From positions 1 through 30,114 of the IMG/VR virus record IMGVR_UViG_3300044620_000182: a stretch of DNA of 30,114 nucleotides. One strand, written 5' to 3'. Below are positions 19,230 through 27,485 of this stretch, piece by piece (the first letter of the stretch is position 1; each line of letters opens with the position of its first letter). The notes below the pieces were generated by a model. The model searched no databases. It was not told the DNA's origin and was given only the letters and a program-made list of their open reading frames with translations. The translations under genes and the position numbers were made by a program. This DNA is from a virus. Lineage: Duplodnaviria; Caudoviricetes.

Positions 19230-19547
19230 CTAATCCTCGTTTGCTATCCTATTTTTAAGCCTGTTCTCCCTGTTCCTTTTGTACCTTTCCTCTTGTGTTT
19301 GAATCTTGAGCAGGACAAGGTAGCCGATTAAATCATTGATCACGTCTTCATCATCCTTTTCCAGGCTCCCGTTTTTTATCCGTTTAAGTTTATCATCTAT
19401 CCTGACCAGTAGTCCTTCCTTTGCGGACAACTTAGAGAAAACCCCTAGCGGCTCAAGGACTGAGTTTCCATACTTGAGATTTTTGGTAATCAGCAGTTCA
19501 CGGATTTCTAGTAGGTAGGAGGAAACCTTGTTTGCAAATTCATTCAT
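19230..19547 (-). CDS. Nmad1/DUF1599-like (nucleotide modification associated) protein
   Basis: KNLKYGNS...VRIDDKLKRI...DVINDLIGYLVL pattern matches this family. Confidence 0.7.
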   Translation of the reverse strand: MNEFANKVSSYLLEIRELLITKNLKYGNSVLEPLGVFSKLSAKEGLLVRIDDKLKRIKNGSLEKDDEDVINDLIGYLVLLKIQTQEERYKRNRENRLKNRIANED

Positions 19548-19639
19548 TAGTAGAAGAGTTCAAAGATGGCTATTACAATCAAGGCAAAGATAAGAGAAAA
19601 CCCTACAACTTTAAAGAAGGATTTAGATCTCTGACTCAT
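19547..19639 (-). CDS. 30-aa single-TM peptide, not in ORF track
   Basis: MSQRSKSFFKVVGFSLIFALIVIAIFELFY*; TAATG-coupled to the Nmad1-like gene. Confidence 0.55.
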   Translation of the reverse strand: MSQRSKSFFKVVGFSLIFALIVIAIFELFY

Positions 19640-19874
19640 GGCACTCCTTGAATGATTTGAACCTATCCCCTTTTAGGTATTGGCTTGATTGGAACTTTGA
19701 CCTACCCTTCTTGATCAGGAAGCCATCCTCAAATAGGATGTAGAATTCATTCTCAGATACTACCTCATTGAATTGAATGTAGTCTACCCACCACTCAGCA
19801 GGCTTTCTATTTTCATCAATGACTTTTGAAGCCCTTCCGTATCCAAACGGATTCAAGATCTCGATTTCTTCCAT
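19623..19874 (-). CDS. hypothetical protein (83 aa)
   Basis: ATG at 19874 after an A-rich leader is preferred to the track start at 19928. Confidence 0.6.
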   Translation of the reverse strand: MEEIEILNPFGYGRASKVIDENRKPAEWWVDYIQFNEVVSENEFYILFEDGFLIKKGRSKFQSSQYLKGDRFKSFKECHESEI

Positions 19875-19950
19875 AGTTTTTTTTGGCAAGTTATAACCAT
19901 AAAAAAGCACACTCGAAAAAAATCTCACTTTTTGTGTAAAATTTTTTCAC

Positions 19951-19995
19951 AAATATTTTTTTTTCTAATTTTTTCCTTCGATATTTGATTCATCA
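19951..19995 (+). promoter_or_regulatory. early promoter copy 1 (Bacteroidota sigma70-type)
   Basis: TTTT-N19-GATATTTG, close to TTTG-N19-TAnnTTTG; 40/45 identical to 22024-22068. Confidence 0.65.
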
Positions 19996-20021
19996 AACAG
20001 GGACATAAAACCAAAAACACC

Positions 20022-20234
20022 ATGAAAGCAATCGAAAAAGTACAGCAGGAACTAAACAAAGTATTCGCAATGCAGGATCAACTTCAGAAGGAAGTTTGGA
20101 CAAAGGAAAACTATCAGATCAATTCAATGAGAGAAGATATGCTTTCAGAAATGGCATCTACTCTTTCACAAGTATTGAGAAGCCTAGAAGAAGAAAATGA
20201 AGACTTGGAATATATCAGCCTAAACGAAAGATAA
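20022..20234 (+). CDS. hypothetical early protein
   Basis: 70 aa, first gene after promoter copy 1. Confidence 0.65.
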   Translation: MKAIEKVQQELNKVFAMQDQLQKEVWTKENYQINSMREDMLSEMASTLSQVLRSLEEENEDLEYISLNER

Positions 20235-20236
20235 AA

Positions 20237-20260
20237 CACAGCCCTTCGGGGCTTTACTTT
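20237..20260 (+). terminator. UUCG hairpin copy 1 (weak terminator/attenuator)
   Basis: CACAGCCCTTCGGGGCTTTACTTT, identical to 22270-22293. Confidence 0.6.
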
Positions 20261-20274
20261 AAACCCTAAAAAAA

Positions 20275-20541
20275 ATGAACTACGAAACAGAAAATTTCTA
20301 CGATCAAGAGATCGAATTCACCTACGAAGGTAGGGAGTATGTATGGCAAGGTGACTACACCATCGAACACACAGGTGAAGATGAAAGCGAGTATGCTCCT
20401 GCCTATGGCGAAATGGAGATCAGCATCGATCACACATCAAGCCTGTCCTATTATGATGAAGATCTCGAGAAGGTAGTGGAGGTCAAGCCTACTGCTTCGA
20501 TCCTCATGGAGTTAGAAATACAAATTGAAAGAAACTATTAA
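20275..20541 (+). CDS. hypothetical acidic protein
   Basis: 88 aa, very E/D/Y-rich. Confidence 0.6.
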   Translation: MNYETENFYDQEIEFTYEGREYVWQGDYTIEHTGEDESEYAPAYGEMEISIDHTSSLSYYDEDLEKVVEVKPTASILMELEIQIERNY

Positions 20542-21722: not shown

Positions 21723-22024
21723 CACCCCTTGTCAAGGATCTATACGCTCAAGGCTATACGAGAAATAAGATAGCCGAGATTATGGGGGTCAAGAATATAG
21801 TAGTACAGTACATCCTCTATAAGATACTGCTAGTAAATAAAAGCAATCCAAGAAGTAACTTGATGGAAGTGCTGCCAAAGGATCAGGTTAACAGGATAAT
21901 AACCCTTTCCTGTTGGGGATACAATAACTACGAGATAGCAGAGGATCTAGATTTGCCCGTGAAGAATGTGACTCTGGTGATCAAGGAAGCACGGAATAAA
22001 AAATTAATTCAAAAATTTTGTTGA
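21695..22024 (+). CDS. tandem HTH DNA-binding protein
   Basis: Two HTH-like repeats, GYTRNKIAEIMGV and GYNNYEIAEDLDL. Confidence 0.6.
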   Translation: MAACKYQSLAPLVKDLYAQGYTRNKIAEIMGVKNIVVQYILYKILLVNKSNPRSNLMEVLPKDQVNRIITLSCWGYNNYEIAEDLDLPVKNVTLVIKEARNKKLIQKFC

Positions 22025-22068
22025 AATATTTTGTTTTCTAATTTATTCCTAAGATATTTGATACATCA
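22024..22068 (+). promoter_or_regulatory. early promoter copy 2
   Basis: TTTG(22030-22033)-N19-GATATTTG(22053-22060); 40/45 identical to 19951-19995. Confidence 0.7.
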
Positions 22069-22091: not shown

Positions 22092-22268
22092 ATGAAAACT
22101 TTGACAAACAGATCAGGCAGCAAGGCAGTAAAAATCAGCAAAGATGCCACAGGAAAATTTAGAGCATTTTATGTTCAGTTCTTTCAAGGTATGGATCAGG
22201 TACTACTATCCAAGGACTTCTCAAGTATCAAGAATGCAGAGAAGTGGGCTGCTAAAATCCTTAACTAA
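22092..22268 (+). CDS. small early protein (58 aa), not in ORF track
   Basis: MKTLTNRSGSKAVKISKDATGKFRAFYVQFFQGMDQVLLSKDFSSIKNAEKWAAKILN*; fits between promoter copy 2 and hairpin copy 2. Confidence 0.7.
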   Translation: MKTLTNRSGSKAVKISKDATGKFRAFYVQFFQGMDQVLLSKDFSSIKNAEKWAAKILN

Positions 22269-22269
22269 T

Positions 22270-22293
22270 CACAGCCCTTCGGGGCTTTACTTT
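22270..22293 (+). terminator. UUCG hairpin copy 2
   Basis: Identical 24-mer to 20237-20260. Confidence 0.6.
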
Positions 22294-22300
22294 CTAAACC

Positions 22301-22402
22301 ATGAAAAAAGCACTTCAAATCACAGGCAAAATCCTCTACTTTATAGTAGCCATGTCTCCCATCTTTGCCCTAGGCTATATGCTAGGACTTAAATTAATCT
22401 AA
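22301..22402 (+). CDS. 33-aa membrane peptide, not in ORF track
   Basis: MKKALQITGKILYFIVAMSPIFALGYMLGLKLI*. Confidence 0.55.
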   Translation: MKKALQITGKILYFIVAMSPIFALGYMLGLKLI

Positions 22403-22925: not shown

Positions 22926-23287
22926 CCAGAGAAGAAATCATCACCGAACTAAACCACCGTAGTACGCAGAAGTACTTGGTGTACCTAGCCCTGCAAGAGA
23001 TCATGCTTGACTACTATGAGGATGTATCCATGCTCAAGTTCTTTGATCTGGATCTGCAGACTAAGCATAAGAATATGATCAATGCATTGAAGCGAAAGTC
23101 TACGCAGGCTTTTAGATACCTTGAAGGGTACGATAATGGCGAAGCAACTATCAAGCAGTTCCATGAGTTCGTGACCTTATTTGAAAGGCTTCACACGGCT
23201 ATAGATGAAGGAGGGTCTATCTTCCATGATTGCCTTAATGCTGTAGAAGAAATCCTTGATAAGCATGAAAAGGCGCAGAGTAACTGA
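22922..23287 (+). CDS. hypothetical protein
   Basis: 121 aa, ATGA-coupled. Confidence 0.6.
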   Translation: MTREEIITELNHRSTQKYLVYLALQEIMLDYYEDVSMLKFFDLDLQTKHKNMINALKRKSTQAFRYLEGYDNGEATIKQFHEFVTLFERLHTAIDEGGSIFHDCLNAVEEILDKHEKAQSN

Positions 23288-23414
23288 AGAGGAAAAACAG
23301 ATGATCTTTGAAGGATGGCAGGACAGAAAGCCGATAAAGGTAATTGCTATAGAATTAGGCAGATGCTATGGGACTGTCTATACTGAATTAAAAAAAAGGT
23401 ATCTAGTAGGATAA
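23265..23414 (+). CDS. 49-aa HTH protein, not in ORF track
   Basis: MKRRRVTEEEKQMIFEGWQDRKPIKVIAIELGRCYGTVYTELKKRYLVG*; IAxxLGRxxxTV HTH pattern. Confidence 0.65.
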   Translation: MKRRRVTEEEKQMIFEGWQDRKPIKVIAIELGRCYGTVYTELKKRYLVG

Positions 23415-23428
23415 TTAAAAAAAAGTAT

Positions 23429-23436
23429 TATATTCG
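23429..23436 (+). promoter_or_regulatory. -7 promoter element for replication operon
   Basis: TATATTCG (TAnnTTyG), 8 nt before the structured leader. Confidence 0.55.
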
Positions 23437-23444
23437 TGAATCAA

Positions 23445-23533
23445 GAATCATTCCTGTGTGGAAGCGAGAATGATTCCATAGGTTAACTAAACCTGAGCCT
23501 GGCAGTCTTCCACCTGTCGGGCTTTTTTATTTT
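23445..23533 (+). ncRNA. structured 5' leader/small RNA with intrinsic terminator and loop-loop complementarity
   Basis: P1 GAATCATTC/GAATGATTC; P2 AGGTT/AACCT; P3 AGCCTGGCAG/CTGTCGGGCT plus T-tract; P1-loop GTGGAAG complements P3-loop CTTCCAC. Confidence 0.65.
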
Positions 23534-23539
23534 AAAAAA

Positions 23540-24253
23540 ATGAGCGGATGGATTAAAGTACACAGACAACTTCAGGAGCATTGGGTCTGGTCAAAGCCGG
23601 AGTATTTAAAATGGTGGCTTGACATTTTGATGTCGGCTAACATAGAGCCAAAGAAGGTTTTGATCAAGGGTCAACTTCTAGAAGTTAATAGGGGTGAGGT
23701 CATTTACTCCTACGAAACTTGGGCAAATAGATGGAAAATCAATAAGTCTAAGGTTTTGAGGTTTTTAAAAATGCTTGAAAAAGATTCAATGATCGTGCTA
23801 AAAAGCGAAACGGTTACGACACGGCTAACTATCTGTAAATATGATACTTACCAAGGTGAGCGAAACGATAGTGAAACGCAAGTGAAACGCACACGAAACG
23901 CAGGTGAAACGCAAGTGAAACCAACTAAAGAAGTAAAAGAATTAAAGAATGAAATAAGTAAAGAGACTTTGATTTCTTTGGATGAAGTAGAAGAAGAGAT
24001 GGGTAAGGAAAAGCCAATGCAAAGATCTTTCTTTATTAGAATGCAGTATATCTATAACCTAGATGAAAAGAAGGTAAAGGAAGCATTTAAGAATTGGAAG
24101 ATACTGAAGGAAGGAGAAGCAATGACTATAAGCAAAGCACAGAACTCATTCAATCTCTACCTGAAAAATAATGCAAGCACAGGATACAGCGAAAGCAAAG
24201 AAGTACATAAGCCTAAGTACGCAAAGTCTACTATTGAAAATAATTGGTGGTAA
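23540..24253 (+). CDS. replication initiator (lambda O/DnaD-like replisome organizer)
   Basis: GWIKVHRQL N-terminus, wHTH-like segment WANRWKINKSKVLRFLKMLEK, internal iterons, helicase downstream. Confidence 0.75.
   Translation: MSGWIKVHRQLQEHWVWSKPEYLKWWLDILMSANIEPKKVLIKGQLLEVNRGEVIYSYETWANRWKINKSKVLRFLKMLEKDSMIVLKSETVTTRLTICKYDTYQGERNDSETQVKRTRNAGETQVKPTKEVKELKNEISKETLISLDEVEEEMGKEKPMQRSFFIRMQYIYNLDEKKVKEAFKNWKILKEGEAMTISKAQNSFNLYLKNNASTGYSESKEVHKPKYAKSTIENNWW
23860..23964. repeat. iteron array plus A-rich tract (putative replication origin)
   Basis: GAAAC(G) at 23862, 23873, 23884, 23895, 23906 and 23917 (11-nt period), followed by an A-rich stretch. Confidence 0.75.
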
Positions 24254-24561
24254 TGGAAAGCAAGGATATACAAAAAATGAATGACCTTAATAGGGATATT
24301 TGGGGAATGATAGTACAGGCACAGCGAACTAAAAACTGGGCATTGATTGAAGTGAACTTGAAGAGGCTCTATTCCTTACAAAAAAAGTATATAAATCTTA
24401 TCAATATCATGGATTATGAGGTAAAAGGTACTACCTTGATGCTTCAAGATGAAATAAGGGTAAGGAATCAATTTGAAAAGCAATGGTTCAAAGATGTAGC
24501 AGAAAGAAATCATGCCTACCAGGAGATGAAAGAAAATATAGATAAACACTTTGCTGAATGA
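24253..24561 (+). CDS. hypothetical protein
   Basis: TAATG-coupled start at 24253; lies between initiator and helicase. Confidence 0.6.
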   Translation: MESKDIQKMNDLNRDIWGMIVQAQRTKNWALIEVNLKRLYSLQKKYINLINIMDYEVKGTTLMLQDEIRVRNQFEKQWFKDVAERNHAYQEMKENIDKHFAE

Positions 24562-25622
24562 GAAAGAAATCAGATAAGATTTTTGACCTGGACTTCTGCG
24601 AGGCATCTATCAAAACCTTTGCAGGGCAGAGAGATTCAATGCTGCAAAACTTCAGGAAAGGTAAGGAGGCAGGATCGAAGACCTATGTGAGGGACATTGA
24701 CCAAATCAGTAGTGGAGGTATTCAAAATAAAATGTGGTCTTGGAAGGCAGGAGAATTTAACCTGTGGACAGGCTACAATAATGAAGGAAAGTCACAGTTC
24801 CTGATCTTTCTTTGTGTTCTAAAAGCAATAAATGAGGGTTGGAAGTTTGCTTTTTTTAGCCCTGAAAACTACCCGCCTGATGAGTTCTTTGATGACATCA
24901 TCCACACGATACTTGGAAAAAGTACGGATAGATTCTACAAGAATTTTGATGTGAGTGAGCAGGAATATTTGAAGGCTTTTGACATGGTAAAGGACTCTTT
25001 CTACTTTGTCTATCCAGAAAAGAATGGGGTGCCTGATTTTACTATCGAGCAGATAGAATCAGTATTCGAATTCCTTGTATGGGAGAAAGATGTCAAGGCG
25101 GTGGTTGTAGATCCGTACATCAAGATACGGCACGAGATGACAGCGGGAGAGCCTGAACACCTGTATGCTTCTAGGTTCATGATGGATCGGATCAACTTCA
25201 CACGGAAGAATAATGTATCCTATCACCTTGTAATGCACCAGACTACACCTAGGAAGGAGAAGGATGGAAACTACCCTCCACCTAGCCTATACCAAATCAA
25301 AGGAGGTGGAACATTTGCAGACTCTACGGACAATTCTATCTCAGTATGGAGACCGAACAGGGCTACTGATCCAAATGATACCACAGTCATCATTAAAACT
25401 GATAAGATTAAAAAGCAGAAATTGGTAGGTGTACCTTTCGAAATTGAGATAGATTTCAATAGAAAAAAGAACAGGTACATGGGAAAGGATGGCTTTGACT
25501 ACTTTGAGAATGCGAAAAAAGTAACCGGTTCAGAACCGGTTCACGAACCAAGAGTAGAGAAATTTCACAGATCCGGAATAGAAGATTTTGAATTCAATCA
25601 GGAAACTATAACACCATTTTAA
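24558..25622 (+). CDS. SF4 (DnaB/T7 gp4/Twinkle-like) replicative helicase, no primase domain
   Basis: Walker A GYNNEGKS, FSPEN, Walker B VVVDPY, HLVMHQ and IKGGG.F motifs. Confidence 0.8.
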   Translation: MRKKSDKIFDLDFCEASIKTFAGQRDSMLQNFRKGKEAGSKTYVRDIDQISSGGIQNKMWSWKAGEFNLWTGYNNEGKSQFLIFLCVLKAINEGWKFAFFSPENYPPDEFFDDIIHTILGKSTDRFYKNFDVSEQEYLKAFDMVKDSFYFVYPEKNGVPDFTIEQIESVFEFLVWEKDVKAVVVDPYIKIRHEMTAGEPEHLYASRFMMDRINFTRKNNVSYHLVMHQTTPRKEKDGNYPPPSLYQIKGGGTFADSTDNSISVWRPNRATDPNDTTVIIKTDKIKKQKLVGVPFEIEIDFNRKKNRYMGKDGFDYFENAKKVTGSEPVHEPRVEKFHRSGIEDFEFNQETITPF

Positions 25623-26693
25623 ATGAAAGACAATAAGCACAGATTCCCGTACAAATGGAATCTAAAGGATGCAGTATTTACCAAGGATAAAGGAAAAGTT
25701 TTTTCCTGCTTTGCCTGCGGTGGAGGTTCTACAATGGGCTACAAGTTAGCCGGGTTTGATGTTCTAGGATGTAATGAGATTGATCCTAAAATGATGGAAG
25801 CATATAAGGCTAATCACAATCCAAAGTATTCTTTTCTTGAGGGTATCCAAACGTTCAAACTTAGAGAGGATCTTCCAGAAGAATTTTATAACCTTGACAT
25901 ACTTGACGGCTCACCTCCATGCAGTTCATTCTCTATGGCAGGGAATAGGGAATCCGATTGGGGAAAGGAAAAGAAATTTAGAGAAGGCCAGGCTGATCAA
26001 GTACTTGATACTTTGTTTTTTGATTTTATTGATTTAGCAAAAAAACTACAGCCAAAAGTAGTAGTGGCTGAGAATGTAAAAGGCTTACTTCTAGGAAATG
26101 CTATTGAGTACGTTAAGAAGATTTATAAGGAGTTTGACCAGGCAGGATACTATTGCCAGCATTGGCTACTTGATGCCTCAAAAATGGGAGTACCACAAAG
26201 AAGGGAAAGAGTATTCTTTATTTGCTTAAGAAAAGATATTGCAAAGCCTTTCCTTCAGCAAGTTGATTTCTTTACATCTCTTCCTAAATTAGGTTTAGAT
26301 TTTAAAGAACCTGAAATAAAGTTTAAAGAAATTGAGGATTTAAATGCTGAACTTATTCCTATTCATGAAACTGTAAAAGAATTGTGGTATAAAACTAATC
26401 CTGGTGAAAGTTTTGCAGATGCACATCCAAAGGGGCACTATTTTGGTGAAATAAAAATGCATCCAGAAAAGGTATGTAATACTATTATAGCAAATTCTAG
26501 TGGATCACATCTATATCACTATTCTATTCCTAGAATTTTAAATAATTATGAATACAAGAATGCAGGAACTTATCCTCAAGATTATAACTTTTTAAATAAT
26601 AAGCCTAAGTATTTAATTGGAATGAGTGTTCCACCGGTAATGACTGCACAAATTGCTACAGAAATTTATTTACAATGGCTTTCAAAAATTTAA
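25623..26693 (+). CDS. DNA (cytosine-5) methyltransferase, orphan
   Basis: FACGGG (motif I), GSPPCSSFS (IV), ENVKG (VI), PQRRER (VIII), IGMSVPP (X). Confidence 0.92.
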   Translation: MKDNKHRFPYKWNLKDAVFTKDKGKVFSCFACGGGSTMGYKLAGFDVLGCNEIDPKMMEAYKANHNPKYSFLEGIQTFKLREDLPEEFYNLDILDGSPPCSSFSMAGNRESDWGKEKKFREGQADQVLDTLFFDFIDLAKKLQPKVVVAENVKGLLLGNAIEYVKKIYKEFDQAGYYCQHWLLDASKMGVPQRRERVFFICLRKDIAKPFLQQVDFFTSLPKLGLDFKEPEIKFKEIEDLNAELIPIHETVKELWYKTNPGESFADAHPKGHYFGEIKMHPEKVCNTIIANSSGSHLYHYSIPRILNNYEYKNAGTYPQDYNFLNNKPKYLIGMSVPPVMTAQIATEIYLQWLSKI

Positions 26694-26695
26694 AA

Positions 26696-26872
26696 ATGAA
26701 AAAGATAATCAAGAGTTTCACACCTTCAAAGCAGGATCTGTTCAGCATTCAGTCTACCTTGCTTTCGATCTTTACCCTGCTCCATTTTGAATTTGAAGTA
26801 GGCTTTCTGTTTATGGTGATAGTAGCCCTGTACACTATCGGGATGGATCTAATCTATAAGGCTTGCAGATGA
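26696..26872 (+). CDS. small membrane protein
   Basis: ATG 26696; two hydrophobic stretches. Confidence 0.5.
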   Translation: MKKIIKSFTPSKQDLFSIQSTLLSIFTLLHFEFEVGFLFMVIVALYTIGMDLIYKACR

Positions 26873-27210
26873 TACAATTCAAGATAAATGAGAAGCCCAT
26901 GTCCGTCAATTTAGCCTGGCAGGGAAAGAGATTCAAAACAACTGCGTACAAGGACTATGAAAAGGGAATGATTTTAAGAATGCCAAAAGGTAAGATAGAT
27001 ACTGATGAGATGCTACGGGTAGAGTTCTTCTTTGGATTTAGCAACAAAGCAAGTGATCTAGATAATCCGGTCAAGTTACTCATGGACATAGCACAAAAAA
27101 AATATAGTTTCAATGACAAGATGGTCTTTGAATTAAATGTGAGGAAGTGCATTGTCAAGAAAGGTGAAGAATTTATTGAGATGGGGATCTATAAGATGCT
27201 ACCTTTTTAG
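26869..27210 (+). CDS. rusA: RusA-like Holliday junction resolvase
   Basis: KPMSVN, DLDNPVKLLMD and FND.MV motifs; ATGA-coupled start. Confidence 0.75.
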   Translation: MIQFKINEKPMSVNLAWQGKRFKTTAYKDYEKGMILRMPKGKIDTDEMLRVEFFFGFSNKASDLDNPVKLLMDIAQKKYSFNDKMVFELNVRKCIVKKGEEFIEMGIYKMLPF

Positions 27211-27230: not shown

Positions 27231-27258
27231 TTGGATATTAATTTTAATACTATATTTG
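27231..27258 (+). promoter_or_regulatory. Bacteroidota-type promoter
   Basis: TTG(27231)-N17-TATATTTG(27251-27258), perfect TAnnTTTG. Confidence 0.65.
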
Positions 27259-27275
27259 AATAAATAACAAACTAA

Positions 27276-27485
27276 ATGAGCGTAGAAGAAGGAAGATTTA
27301 TCAGGCAAGCCAGGAAGAAAAGCGGCTTTACTCAGTTAGAACTTTGTAAGAAACTAGGCATAAGCCATGCACCGATTAACCAAGTTGAAAACGGATGGGA
27401 GTCAATCAGCCTTTTCAATCTTAGAATGATCTGCGAGGCAGTAGGTCTGGAGGTAGTCATCCGAGAAAAGAAACAGAATGCCTAG
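27276..27485 (+). CDS. XRE/Cro-family HTH regulator
   Basis: IRQARKKSGFTQLELCKKLGISHAPINQVENG. Confidence 0.85.
   Translation: MSVEEGRFIRQARKKSGFTQLELCKKLGISHAPINQVENGWESISLFNLRMICEAVGLEVVIREKKQNA

Follow-up and report, generated by a model that had tools for sequence, protein, structure and literature searches.

The stretch of DNA analysed here, referred to as the window, is the whole of the IMG/VR virus record IMGVR_UViG_3300044620_000182 (30,114 bases), which belongs to the tailed phages (Caudoviricetes), is classed as linear and is estimated to be 89% complete. On its plus strand, between a small gene for an HTH_38 protein and the gene for a DnaD-like replication initiator, lies a leader of three hairpins, two of which present complementary seven-letter words in their loops. 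An earlier note, made from the sequence alone, had proposed that pairing between these loops, or an RNA or protein acting in trans, decides on termination before the initiator and helicase genes, or that the leader is a small RNA. When the sequence was read directly, all positions given in that note for the hairpins, the loops and the T tract were correct, and so was its claim that GTGGAAG (23458-64) and CTTCCAC (23507-13) are exactly complementary. The features of the leader and the two genes that flank it are as follows.

23265..23414, plus strand: upstream gene, encoding a 49-amino-acid HTH_38 protein (Pfam PF13936, E = 8.4e-8)
23429..23436, plus strand: promoter-like -7 box TATATTCG, agreeing with the Bacteroidota TAnnTTTG motif at 7 of 8 positions
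23445..23476, plus strand: hairpin P1, with 9 perfect pairs (23445-53/23468-76; GAATCATTC/GAATGATTC), a C-A mismatch and 2 more pairs; -11.5 kcal/mol
23458..23464, plus strand: L1 word GTGGAAG, positions 2-8 of the P1 loop, the exact reverse complement of L3
23480..23494, plus strand: hairpin P2, weak, with 5 pairs (23480-84/23490-94; AGGTT/AACCT); -2.8 kcal/mol
23495..23524, plus strand: hairpin P3, the stem of an intrinsic terminator, with 10-11 pairs and an 8-nt loop (23506-13); -16.8 kcal/mol
23507..23513, plus strand: L3 word CTTCCAC, positions 2-8 of the terminator loop
23524..23533, plus strand: U tract of the terminator, T5-A-T4 past the last stem pair (T6-A-T4 overall), from a terminator scan
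23540..24253, plus strand: gene for the DnaD-like replication initiator or helicase loader (phrog_2514, E = 2.7e-32)

The minimum free energy (MFE) fold of positions 23429-23542 comprises these three hairpins and no others (-33.4 kcal/mol, z = -4.38); of 200 shuffled sequences, none was as stable. The fold of the opposite strand of the leader had a z of -1.69. The core of P3 comprises 10 pairs, including 2 G-U pairs (23496-505/23514-23), to which the MFE fold adds G23495-U23524. The extra pairs of P1, U23455-G23466 and G23456-C23465, shrink the loop that holds L1 to 8 nucleotides (nt; 23457-64), equal in size to the loop that holds L3, and they covary in relatives. The two loops are 42 nt apart on one RNA, and P1 is linked to P3 by only 3 nt, P2 and a further 0-1 nt.

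P3 has the properties of an intrinsic terminator, namely 11 pairs (6 of them G-C) and an 8-nt loop, followed by TTTTATTTTA. A terminator scan of the region from 19 to 27 kb listed eight sites, among which P3 came first and had the most pairs (11). The tract ends at 23533 and is followed by six A and then by the ATG of the initiator gene at 23540. The earlier note had been unable to assign the leader to a known RNA family, and this is borne out by the Rfam search, in which the whole window was without a match at gathering thresholds, and positions 23300-23700 gave only chance-level matches at permissive thresholds (E of at least 0.27). A leader peptide encoded by the mini-frame ATG ATT CCA TAG at 23470-81 was rejected, as the ATG is lost in GAATAATTC variants. 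Shuffling of the L3 region gave a complementary run of at least 7 in 89 of 5,800 trials. The complementarity of L1 and L3 is more than would be expected by chance, and it is kept, with compensatory change, in the relatives described below.

Covariation of the two loop words

A search with the initiator protein returned 80 viral loci, in 67 of which the match reached the N-terminus of the protein. A three-hairpin leader was found directly upstream of 35 of these 67 relatives. The others comprised 12 with a second leader type, 18 with neither type, one without upstream DNA and one (L035) in which the leader lies about 450 nt further upstream, past an inserted small gene. Together with the window, the 35 loci gave 29 distinct leaders that had been retrieved without any use of L3. 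All 29 fold as three hairpins, and in all 29 the L1 and L3 words form at least 7 Watson-Crick pairs, with a mean of 7.8 as compared to 4.1 in cross-type combinations. To avoid circularity, a second retrieval was performed with patterns that contained either nothing but the P1 arms or the P1 loop frame, in which the variable letters were given as NNN (89 + 42 loci). Six of these 131 loci were without a T tract and were dropped (L111, L122, L134, L135, L152 and L166, all of them unmatched by the covariance model described below), which left 125 loci with 60 distinct sequences. A perfect L1:L3 match was present in 59 of the 60, spanning 7 pairs in 40 sequences, 8 pairs in 7 and 9 pairs in 12. The 60th sequence, L108, is an unrelated palindrome and was dropped. 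Three reverse-strand artefacts of the pattern search (L028-, L020- and L150-) were removed before alignment, and one spurious reverse-strand match of the model in L020 was discarded.

The words fall into seven types, all of which read GU-NNN-AG in L1 and CU-N'N'N'-AC in L3, where NNN is GGA (as in the window), AGG, CGG, GAG, GGU, AGC or CGC. Pairing was also counted by a blind positional rule, in which the GT...AG match within the P1 loop served as the L1 word, and positions 2-8 of the predicted P3 loop as the L3 word. Across the 78 distinct sequences from both retrievals, 533 of the 546 cells were Watson-Crick pairs and 75 sequences were perfect, and not one of 2,000 shuffles of L3 among the sequences reached 533. 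The three exceptions were artefacts of the rule, caused by a loop that was 1 nt shorter in two sequences and by a second pattern match in one, and all three were perfect by free search. When L3 was slid by one position, only 72-87 cells were Watson-Crick pairs.

In the MAFFT alignments A1, A2 and A3, the L1 words were one column out of register between the types with 8-nt and 10-nt loops, and RNAalifold recovered only P1 from alignment A2. As a remedy, the loop-length groups (41 and 31 sequences) were realigned separately by a covariance model, R1, that was built from the helices of the window and does not contain the loop-loop pairs. It should be noted that these alignments are fitted to the helices of the model. 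The loop-loop helix of 7 pairs was 100% paired in both groups, with two-sided changes at 3 pairs among the 41 sequences (in 17, 13 and 8 sequences) and at 1 pair among the 31 (in 13 sequences). Neither group contained a one-sided change or an unpaired cell in this helix (504 cells). P1 was 99.1% paired in both groups, with two-sided changes at 4 pairs in the larger and at 2 pairs in the smaller one. P3 was 98.4% paired with two-sided changes at 4 pairs in the group of 31, which is the subgroup of the window, and 72% paired in the group of 41, in which a bulged subfamily is imperfectly aligned. P2 was paired to 52% and 74% in the groups of 41 and 31, respectively, and its support by covariation is weak, although it is present in every single-sequence fold. 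Many of the pairs in P1 and P3 are G-U, which would be C-A on the other strand, and the structure is therefore one of the plus-strand RNA. Only 20 columns are invariant, and most of these belong to helices or to the invariable GU/AG and CU/AC termini of the words; the AUAGGU stretch between P1 and P2 is nearly invariant.

A natural double mutant is provided by L006 (GUGGAAG/CUUCCAC) and L048 (GUGGUAG/CUACCAC). From the base of P1 to the terminator, these two leaders are identical except for an A>U change in L1 and a U>A change in L3, while their upstream flanks are 72-74% identical and the downstream genes are unrelated (about 50% identity). The words also discriminate well in terms of predicted energy: duplexes of cognate words range from -8.9 to -10.7 kcal/mol, and the best non-cognate duplex reaches -6.8 kcal/mol. 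For the L1 of the window, the values are -8.9 kcal/mol with its cognate L3 and -2.5 to -4.6 kcal/mol with the six non-cognate L3 words. Judged by the public contig names, up to five word types occur under one dataset number (L009, L020, L024, L099 and L145), and four under another. Base pairing between L1 and L3 is, on this comparative evidence, real. The proposal in the earlier note had hinged on covariation of the loop pair in homologues, and the pair is indeed conserved there with compensatory changes. The evidence for the pairing is unusually clean, with seven word types, no mismatched intermediate and a compensatory double mutant provided by nature.

The covariance model found one element in each of the 72 building loci, plus one weak match on a reverse strand. 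It found none in 8 loci with the second leader type, 10 leaderless relatives, the 6 dropped loci and 3 loci from metagenome-assembled genomes (MAGs). When R1 was used to scan 151 Bacteroidota genomes and one MAG, a match of 36.9 bits turned out to be an ordinary host terminator behind a glycine-dehydrogenase-like gene, and another match scored 29.1 bits. The host terminator behind such a gene at L304:1550-1600 (genome handle G096) has a stem that is nearly that of P3 in many leaders (CCCGACAG...CTGTCGGG followed by a T tract), and it is without P1 or complementary loops.

The second leader type (L050-L063, L068 and L225-L240) precedes the initiator start in relatives whose initiators are 48-58% identical, and its upstream gene differs from HTH_38. 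It consists of a TAnnTTTG box, a short hairpin with the word in its loop, about 15-20 nt of A-rich single strand and a tall terminator hairpin with the anti-word in its apical loop. In 3 of the 4 word types, a third site, again with the word, lies in the translation-initiation region, and the sites covary (GTTGCAG/CTGCAAC/GTTGCAG, GTGCAG/CTGCAC/GTGCAG and AGGCAG/CTGCCT/AGGCAG). A search with an initiator of the second type gave more sequences, with no new word types.

Genes and promoter-like boxes around the leader

The DnaD-like initiator gene is the first gene past the terminator. The claim of the earlier note that the leader precedes initiator and helicase genes holds, as the element lies 16 nt upstream of the former and both genes have phrog matches. 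Two further features lie downstream of the leader.

23804..23921, plus strand: tandem 11-nt repeats (GAAACG-type iterons), 4-6 copies, inside the initiator gene (repeat families D1 and D5)
24558..25622, plus strand: replicative helicase gene, in the same operon as the initiator (phrog_5482, phrog_239 and phrog_19)

The iterons start about 280 nt downstream of the P3 terminator and are likely to function as the replication origin. The early or replication region, which is encoded by the same strand as the leader, also comprises Erf, a Gam-like protein, several small helix-turn-helix (HTH) proteins, the HTH_38 protein, a C5 methyltransferase and RusA. The structural and lysis genes of the window include those for a tail fibre, a tape measure protein, a portal protein and an amidase.

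The genomic context was compared across 177 loci, for which some contigs had been fetched repeatedly; these reduce to 118 distinct contexts, of which three are reverse-strand artefacts. Where the element is present, 0-13 nt separate the T tract from the next start codon. The first gene past the terminator encodes a window-like DnaD protein, a Lin1244_N + DUF7833 replication initiator, a DUF6291 protein or a BT4734-like primase-helicase, and by their N-terminal parts, the initiators behind the element represent at least four different families. A small additional gene precedes the DnaD-like gene in three loci. In L035 (1061-1504; also in L191 and L203), the end of this inserted gene overlaps the start codon of the DnaD-like gene, and its product of 147 amino acids has faint PDDEXK/HSDR_N-like matches below the Pfam cut-offs. 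The DUF6291-type proteins (L042-L049, L067) have residues 115/138-237 in common with the DnaD-like protein of the window (66-85% identity) and a different N-terminal domain; the point of this swap lies behind the common leader RNA.

The left neighbour is almost always the 49-amino-acid HTH_38 gene, with the same '...LVG*' tail in nearly all loci of family 1, the leader type of the window. Every one of the common word types is seen together with several kinds of initiator, and different words can follow identical HTH tails. The word type thus follows neither of the flanking proteins, which argues against an inverted repeat bound by protein and places the element at a recombination junction. The element travels with the promoter side of this junction, ahead of four unrelated initiator families.

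The stop codon of the HTH_38 gene lies 14 nt upstream of the promoter-like box. TAnnTTTG has been defined as a Bacteroidota motif, according to the sections of PMC7366714 consulted, and most relatives carry TATATTTG, ending 6 nt upstream of P1. Transcription probably depends on this conserved box, and the transcript is predicted to start a few nt upstream of P1. No perfect TAnnTTTG box was found on the plus strand within the replication module (23540-27210). Another TATATTTG box at 27251-27258 is one of only two perfect plus-strand TAnnTTTG boxes between 19 and 30 kb; it lies 18 nt before the HTH_3 gene at 27276 and may be the promoter of the next transcription unit.

The initiator gene is without a Shine-Dalgarno sequence, and the 20 nt that precede its start are 85% A+T. 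Indeed, a Shine-Dalgarno-like core is present at 2 of the 38 gene starts of the window, and the start regions are A+T-rich, as is usual where the host does without Shine-Dalgarno pairing. Together, the scarcity of such cores and the TAnnTTTG-type box would fit a Bacteroidota host (PMC7366714, in part). A DNA search of 50,697 phage records gave no match to the window. Protein searches of phage records gave only initiators that were less than 60% identical; these are spread over phages of many hosts and therefore allow no host assignment. The genome collection contained only proteins of 31-34% identity, in four MAGs, and no close prophage copy. In the 30-kb record, with its estimated completeness of 89%, genes for an integrase, a repressor or a partition protein were not recognised.

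Further features of the early region are noted here for their own sake. An A+T-rich, promoter-like segment of 58 nt is duplicated at 19938-19995 and 22011-22068 (83% identical) and ends in GATATTTGAT. A segment of 56 nt, with the same hairpin AGCCC-TTCG-GGGCT, is duplicated at 20234-20289 and 22267-22322 (77% identical). The two modules are about 2.05 kb apart, the hairpin segment follows the promoter-like segment after about 300 nt, and each pair brackets a small open reading frame (ORF); they may represent two similar early transcription units or further small RNAs. The only long opposite-strand ORFs among the long ORFs scanned for families are at 19230-19547 and 19623-19928 (minus strand). 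One of them matches phrog_1485, a family of unknown function, and the other matches nothing. A gap at about 19930-20020, possibly a divergent control region, lies between these two ORFs and the early region, which they face.

Proposed gating of the replication genes and rival explanations

The reading that we prefer, with a probability of about 0.5, is that the element is a terminator-gated leader or small RNA in which pairing between the two loops would gate the expression of the replication genes. In its likely first step, transcription would begin at the conserved TAnnTTTG-type box and in most cases end at P3, yielding a stable RNA of about 85 nt, so that the initiator-helicase operon would be fed by read-through. 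The further steps are hypothetical. L1 could kiss L3 in cis in the nascent transcript, and because the linker between P1 and P3 is short, the extended kissing complex would strain the outer pairs of P3 and favour read-through. A comparable proposal has been made for the guanidine-IV riboswitch, in which, as described in parts of PMC7736828, rigid extended kissing hairpins that include the terminator stem stretch a short linker until the outer terminator pairs fail. There is also precedent for terminator loops as pairing sites (PMC11979758). Free terminated RNA of the same word type might then bind in trans to the L1 of leaders that are still being made, or pair up with the leader as a double-kiss dimer. 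Termination would thereby be restored or expression blocked, giving a negative, type-specific feedback on the replication genes.

A gate that acts in trans in this type-specific manner takes up the larger share of the above probability and, considered alone, is a tentative proposal. A component in trans is favoured because the words are diverse without intermediates, because a switch has occurred on an identical core, and because several types co-occur. In its broadest form, the proposal is one of a two-loop code on the sense strand: a small terminated RNA ahead of whatever initiator, which, through its first loop and its terminator loop, would form type-specific double kisses with the leaders of other genome copies in lytic phages of Shine-Dalgarno-free, probably Bacteroidota, hosts. 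This we put forward as a possibility with the odds against it. If it is true, the code would be a new determinant of replication incompatibility or superinfection interference, with at least seven orthogonal specificities that co-circulate and switch by paired single-base changes.

Several observations weigh against a gate of this kind. The leader is not indispensable, because 18 of the 67 initiator relatives are without a leader of either type. No third copy of either word is conserved within 1,500 nt on either side of the element in the window and its 35 relatives, none is present at the translation-initiation region, and the copies in the 30-kb window do not exceed chance; there is one extra GTGGAAG in the window, and scattered extra copies in relatives have no conserved position. 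No competing antiterminator helix was found, and among the 7 leaders tested, folds in which the 3' arm of P3 stays free are less stable by 11-16 kcal/mol. Folding of a local hairpin is normally quicker than contact between loops, and the kiss may thus arise only after termination. The steric argument is one of rough geometry. Melting of the weak P2 (-2.8 kcal/mol), should it occur, would give the linker enough length for an unstrained kiss in cis. As to the promoter, the bare TAnnTTTG motif is not enriched in the window (30 matches as compared to 28.3 expected), and the window's own box carries one mismatch. An immunity role of the phage P4 or phage P1 type would lack a context, since no lysogeny genes were found and the searches did not identify the host. 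Lastly, one metatranscriptome contained a small share of the sequence words, and the four runs that were compared matched only coding parts, from relatives at 90-99% identity, with nothing over 23376-23522; these data are neutral as evidence.

The term attenuator used in the earlier note applies in part only. The leader is a structured plus-strand RNA with covarying loops, as that note had supposed, and it is without the alternative antiterminator helix. In nascent prefixes, the 5' arm of P3 is paired inconsistently (0-9 of its 9-11 nt), which sets it apart from classical attenuators of the trp, pT181 or T-box type. For some word types, the nascent prefix prefers a long-range L1:L3 helix over P1.

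The strongest rival, to which we would give rather long odds, is that the element acts in cis only, as a terminator of the upstream early genes with a stable 5' structure. The kiss would then compact and stabilise the RNA or the 5' end of the mRNA, and the words would be the outcome of neutral compensatory drift, without any regulation or action in trans. This would agree with the position of both loops on one RNA, 42 nt apart, with the similar height of P1 and P3 in both subfamilies, with the flexible A-rich linker of 15-20 nt in the second leader type, as a kiss in cis would need, and with the absence of a competitor helix for P3. Against drift speak the seven word types, among which no G-U or mismatched intermediate occurs in 504 cells. 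Moreover, most switches are transversions, one switch lies on an otherwise identical RNA core, and several word types are present in one dataset, all of which looks more like selection for distinct specificities. The constant position before initiators of unrelated families would also be unexplained.

Somewhat less probable again is a stand-alone small RNA that multimerises through its two loops, as double-kiss dimers or chains, and that has a structural, priming, decoy or host-directed role without acting on the neighbouring genes. The element does have its own promoter-like box and terminator. Its 7-nt words nearly fill the loops and its linker is short, for which rough geometry favours pairing between molecules, and natural RNAs with two different loops that pair between copies are on record (PMC7357161, in part). 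Against such a role speak the tight coupling to the initiator start (0-13 nt) in every context, the lack of an Rfam match to prohead RNA or any other small-RNA family, and the chance-level number of word copies in the window that was mentioned above.

We regard it as improbable that the leader is riboswitch-like or responds to a protein, such as the HTH_38 neighbour, with the ligand or protein stabilising or breaking the kiss. The topology is the same as that described in parts of PMC7736828, in that an upstream loop pairs with the loop of a terminator hairpin; the HTH_38 gene is a near-constant left neighbour, and the AUAGGU stretch between P1 and P2 hardly varies. However, the RNA contains no conserved unpaired core of the size of an aptamer, the pairing letters themselves vary, and a perfect helix of 7-9 pairs at -9 to -11 kcal/mol needs no ligand. 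Furthermore, no riboswitch family matched, and the gene upstream of the second leader type is a different one.

Finally, it is very improbable that the words act in DNA, as an inverted repeat bound by a phage protein such as the initiator, HTH_38 or a repressor. An operator could take the form of such a repeat close to a promoter and an origin, and its half-sites would covary when the specificity of the protein changes. However, the half-sites are separated by 42 bp, and the words coincide exactly with the loops of hairpins whose covarying stems contain many G-U pairs that exist only in the plus-strand RNA. Nor does the word type go with the HTH_38 tail or the initiator family.

Comparison with known systems

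Control of replication genes by loop-loop contacts between RNAs is textbook knowledge for plasmids and for phages P4 and P1, whose incompatibility and immunity groups it defines. In the papers searched, such control was undescribed for ordinary tailed phages of environmental bacteria, and full-text searches of the literature returned no description of a leader like the present one. A published catalogue lists 8,495 candidates for structured RNAs in IMG/VR (PMC10690425, in part). Among them are the unnamed DNAVirus_187, _704, _4859 and _4548, which in freshwater phages lie no more than 25 bp upstream of initiator genes of the DUF4373 type. Judged by these table entries, the leader family may already be listed there without an interpretation. 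An occurrence count of the word 'kissing' in the text of PMC10690425 gave none. By the tests run, the element is a member of none of the P4 CI, P1 C4 and plasmid antisense families.

The earlier note had likened the leader to the CI RNA of phage P4 and the C4 RNA of phage P1, and this likeness is conceptual only. P4 relies on Rho for this termination, and its CI RNA arises through processing. According to sections of PMC4825925, this RNA pairs with seqA upstream and seqC downstream and thereby halts transcription ahead of the replication genes. Like CI, the element is a small same-strand RNA from the leader of a replication operon, in which a short word is complementary to a word elsewhere in the leader; in P4, this pairing controls premature termination. 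Unlike CI, the anti-word of the window has a single partner, and both words lie in hairpin loops, one of which belongs to an intrinsic terminator. The two-site arrangement of CI and C4 is not found in the window and its 35 relatives, in which only L1 and L3 carry the word within 1,500 nt on either side. It is found in 3 of the 4 word types of the second leader type, which has a word / anti-word / word order as in P4, and to that extent the likeness stands. The element has no Rfam or sequence similarity to CI, and no lysogeny genes were found in the window.

For phages P1 and P7, Citron and Schuster (1990) reportedly described C4 of the immI operon as a same-strand antisense RNA that is co-transcribed with its target, and the loop words are said to differ between heteroimmune relatives with matching changes in the target. 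C4 blocks the ribosome site of a downstream gene. The small same-strand RNA with type-specific short loop words is a feature shared with the present element, whereas the window has no copy of the word at the initiator start and no Rfam match to C4.

In plasmid copy control, as exerted by RNA I/II of ColE1, CopA/CopT of R1 and the attenuation systems of pT181 and pIP501, a small terminated RNA makes loop-loop contacts with the rep leader, and single-base changes in the loops create new compatibility types. RNAII of pMV158 is said to be a further example of antisense copy control. These counter-transcripts come from the opposite strand, which makes complementarity automatic, whereas both words of the present element are on the plus strand and must co-evolve. 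No sign of an opposite-strand regulator was seen: the minus-strand fold is poor (z = -1.69), and the G-U pairs of the stems would be C-A there. Should the code act in trans, replication interference between co-infecting phages would have a simple and predictable determinant that could be read from metagenomes, and the code would also be a compact orthogonal set of RNA parts.

Two different, mutually complementary loops on one RNA that covary among relatives are also known from the prohead RNA of phage phi29 and from bicoid mRNA (PMC7357161, in part). The prohead RNA differs in having 4 pairs, a three-way junction and a role in the packaging motor, in contrast to the three separate hairpins in a replication region found here, for which Rfam gave no match.

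The topology of the leader is shared by some riboswitches. In the L5-L13 kissing loops of cobalamin riboswitches, an upstream loop pairs with the loop of a regulatory hairpin. In the guanidine-IV (mepA) and cobalamin L5-L13 systems, as in the present leader, an upstream loop kisses the loop of a terminator or regulatory hairpin, here through a helix of 7 bp that is 100% paired. Their pairings are short, conserved and ligand-dependent, whereas those of the leader comprise 7-9 perfect pairs that vary in the manner of a code, next to which no conserved ligand-binding core was found and no riboswitch family matched. If the leader acts in cis only, it would provide a ligand-free natural example of a kiss with a terminator loop, and would thus bear on how switches of the guanidine-IV type work.

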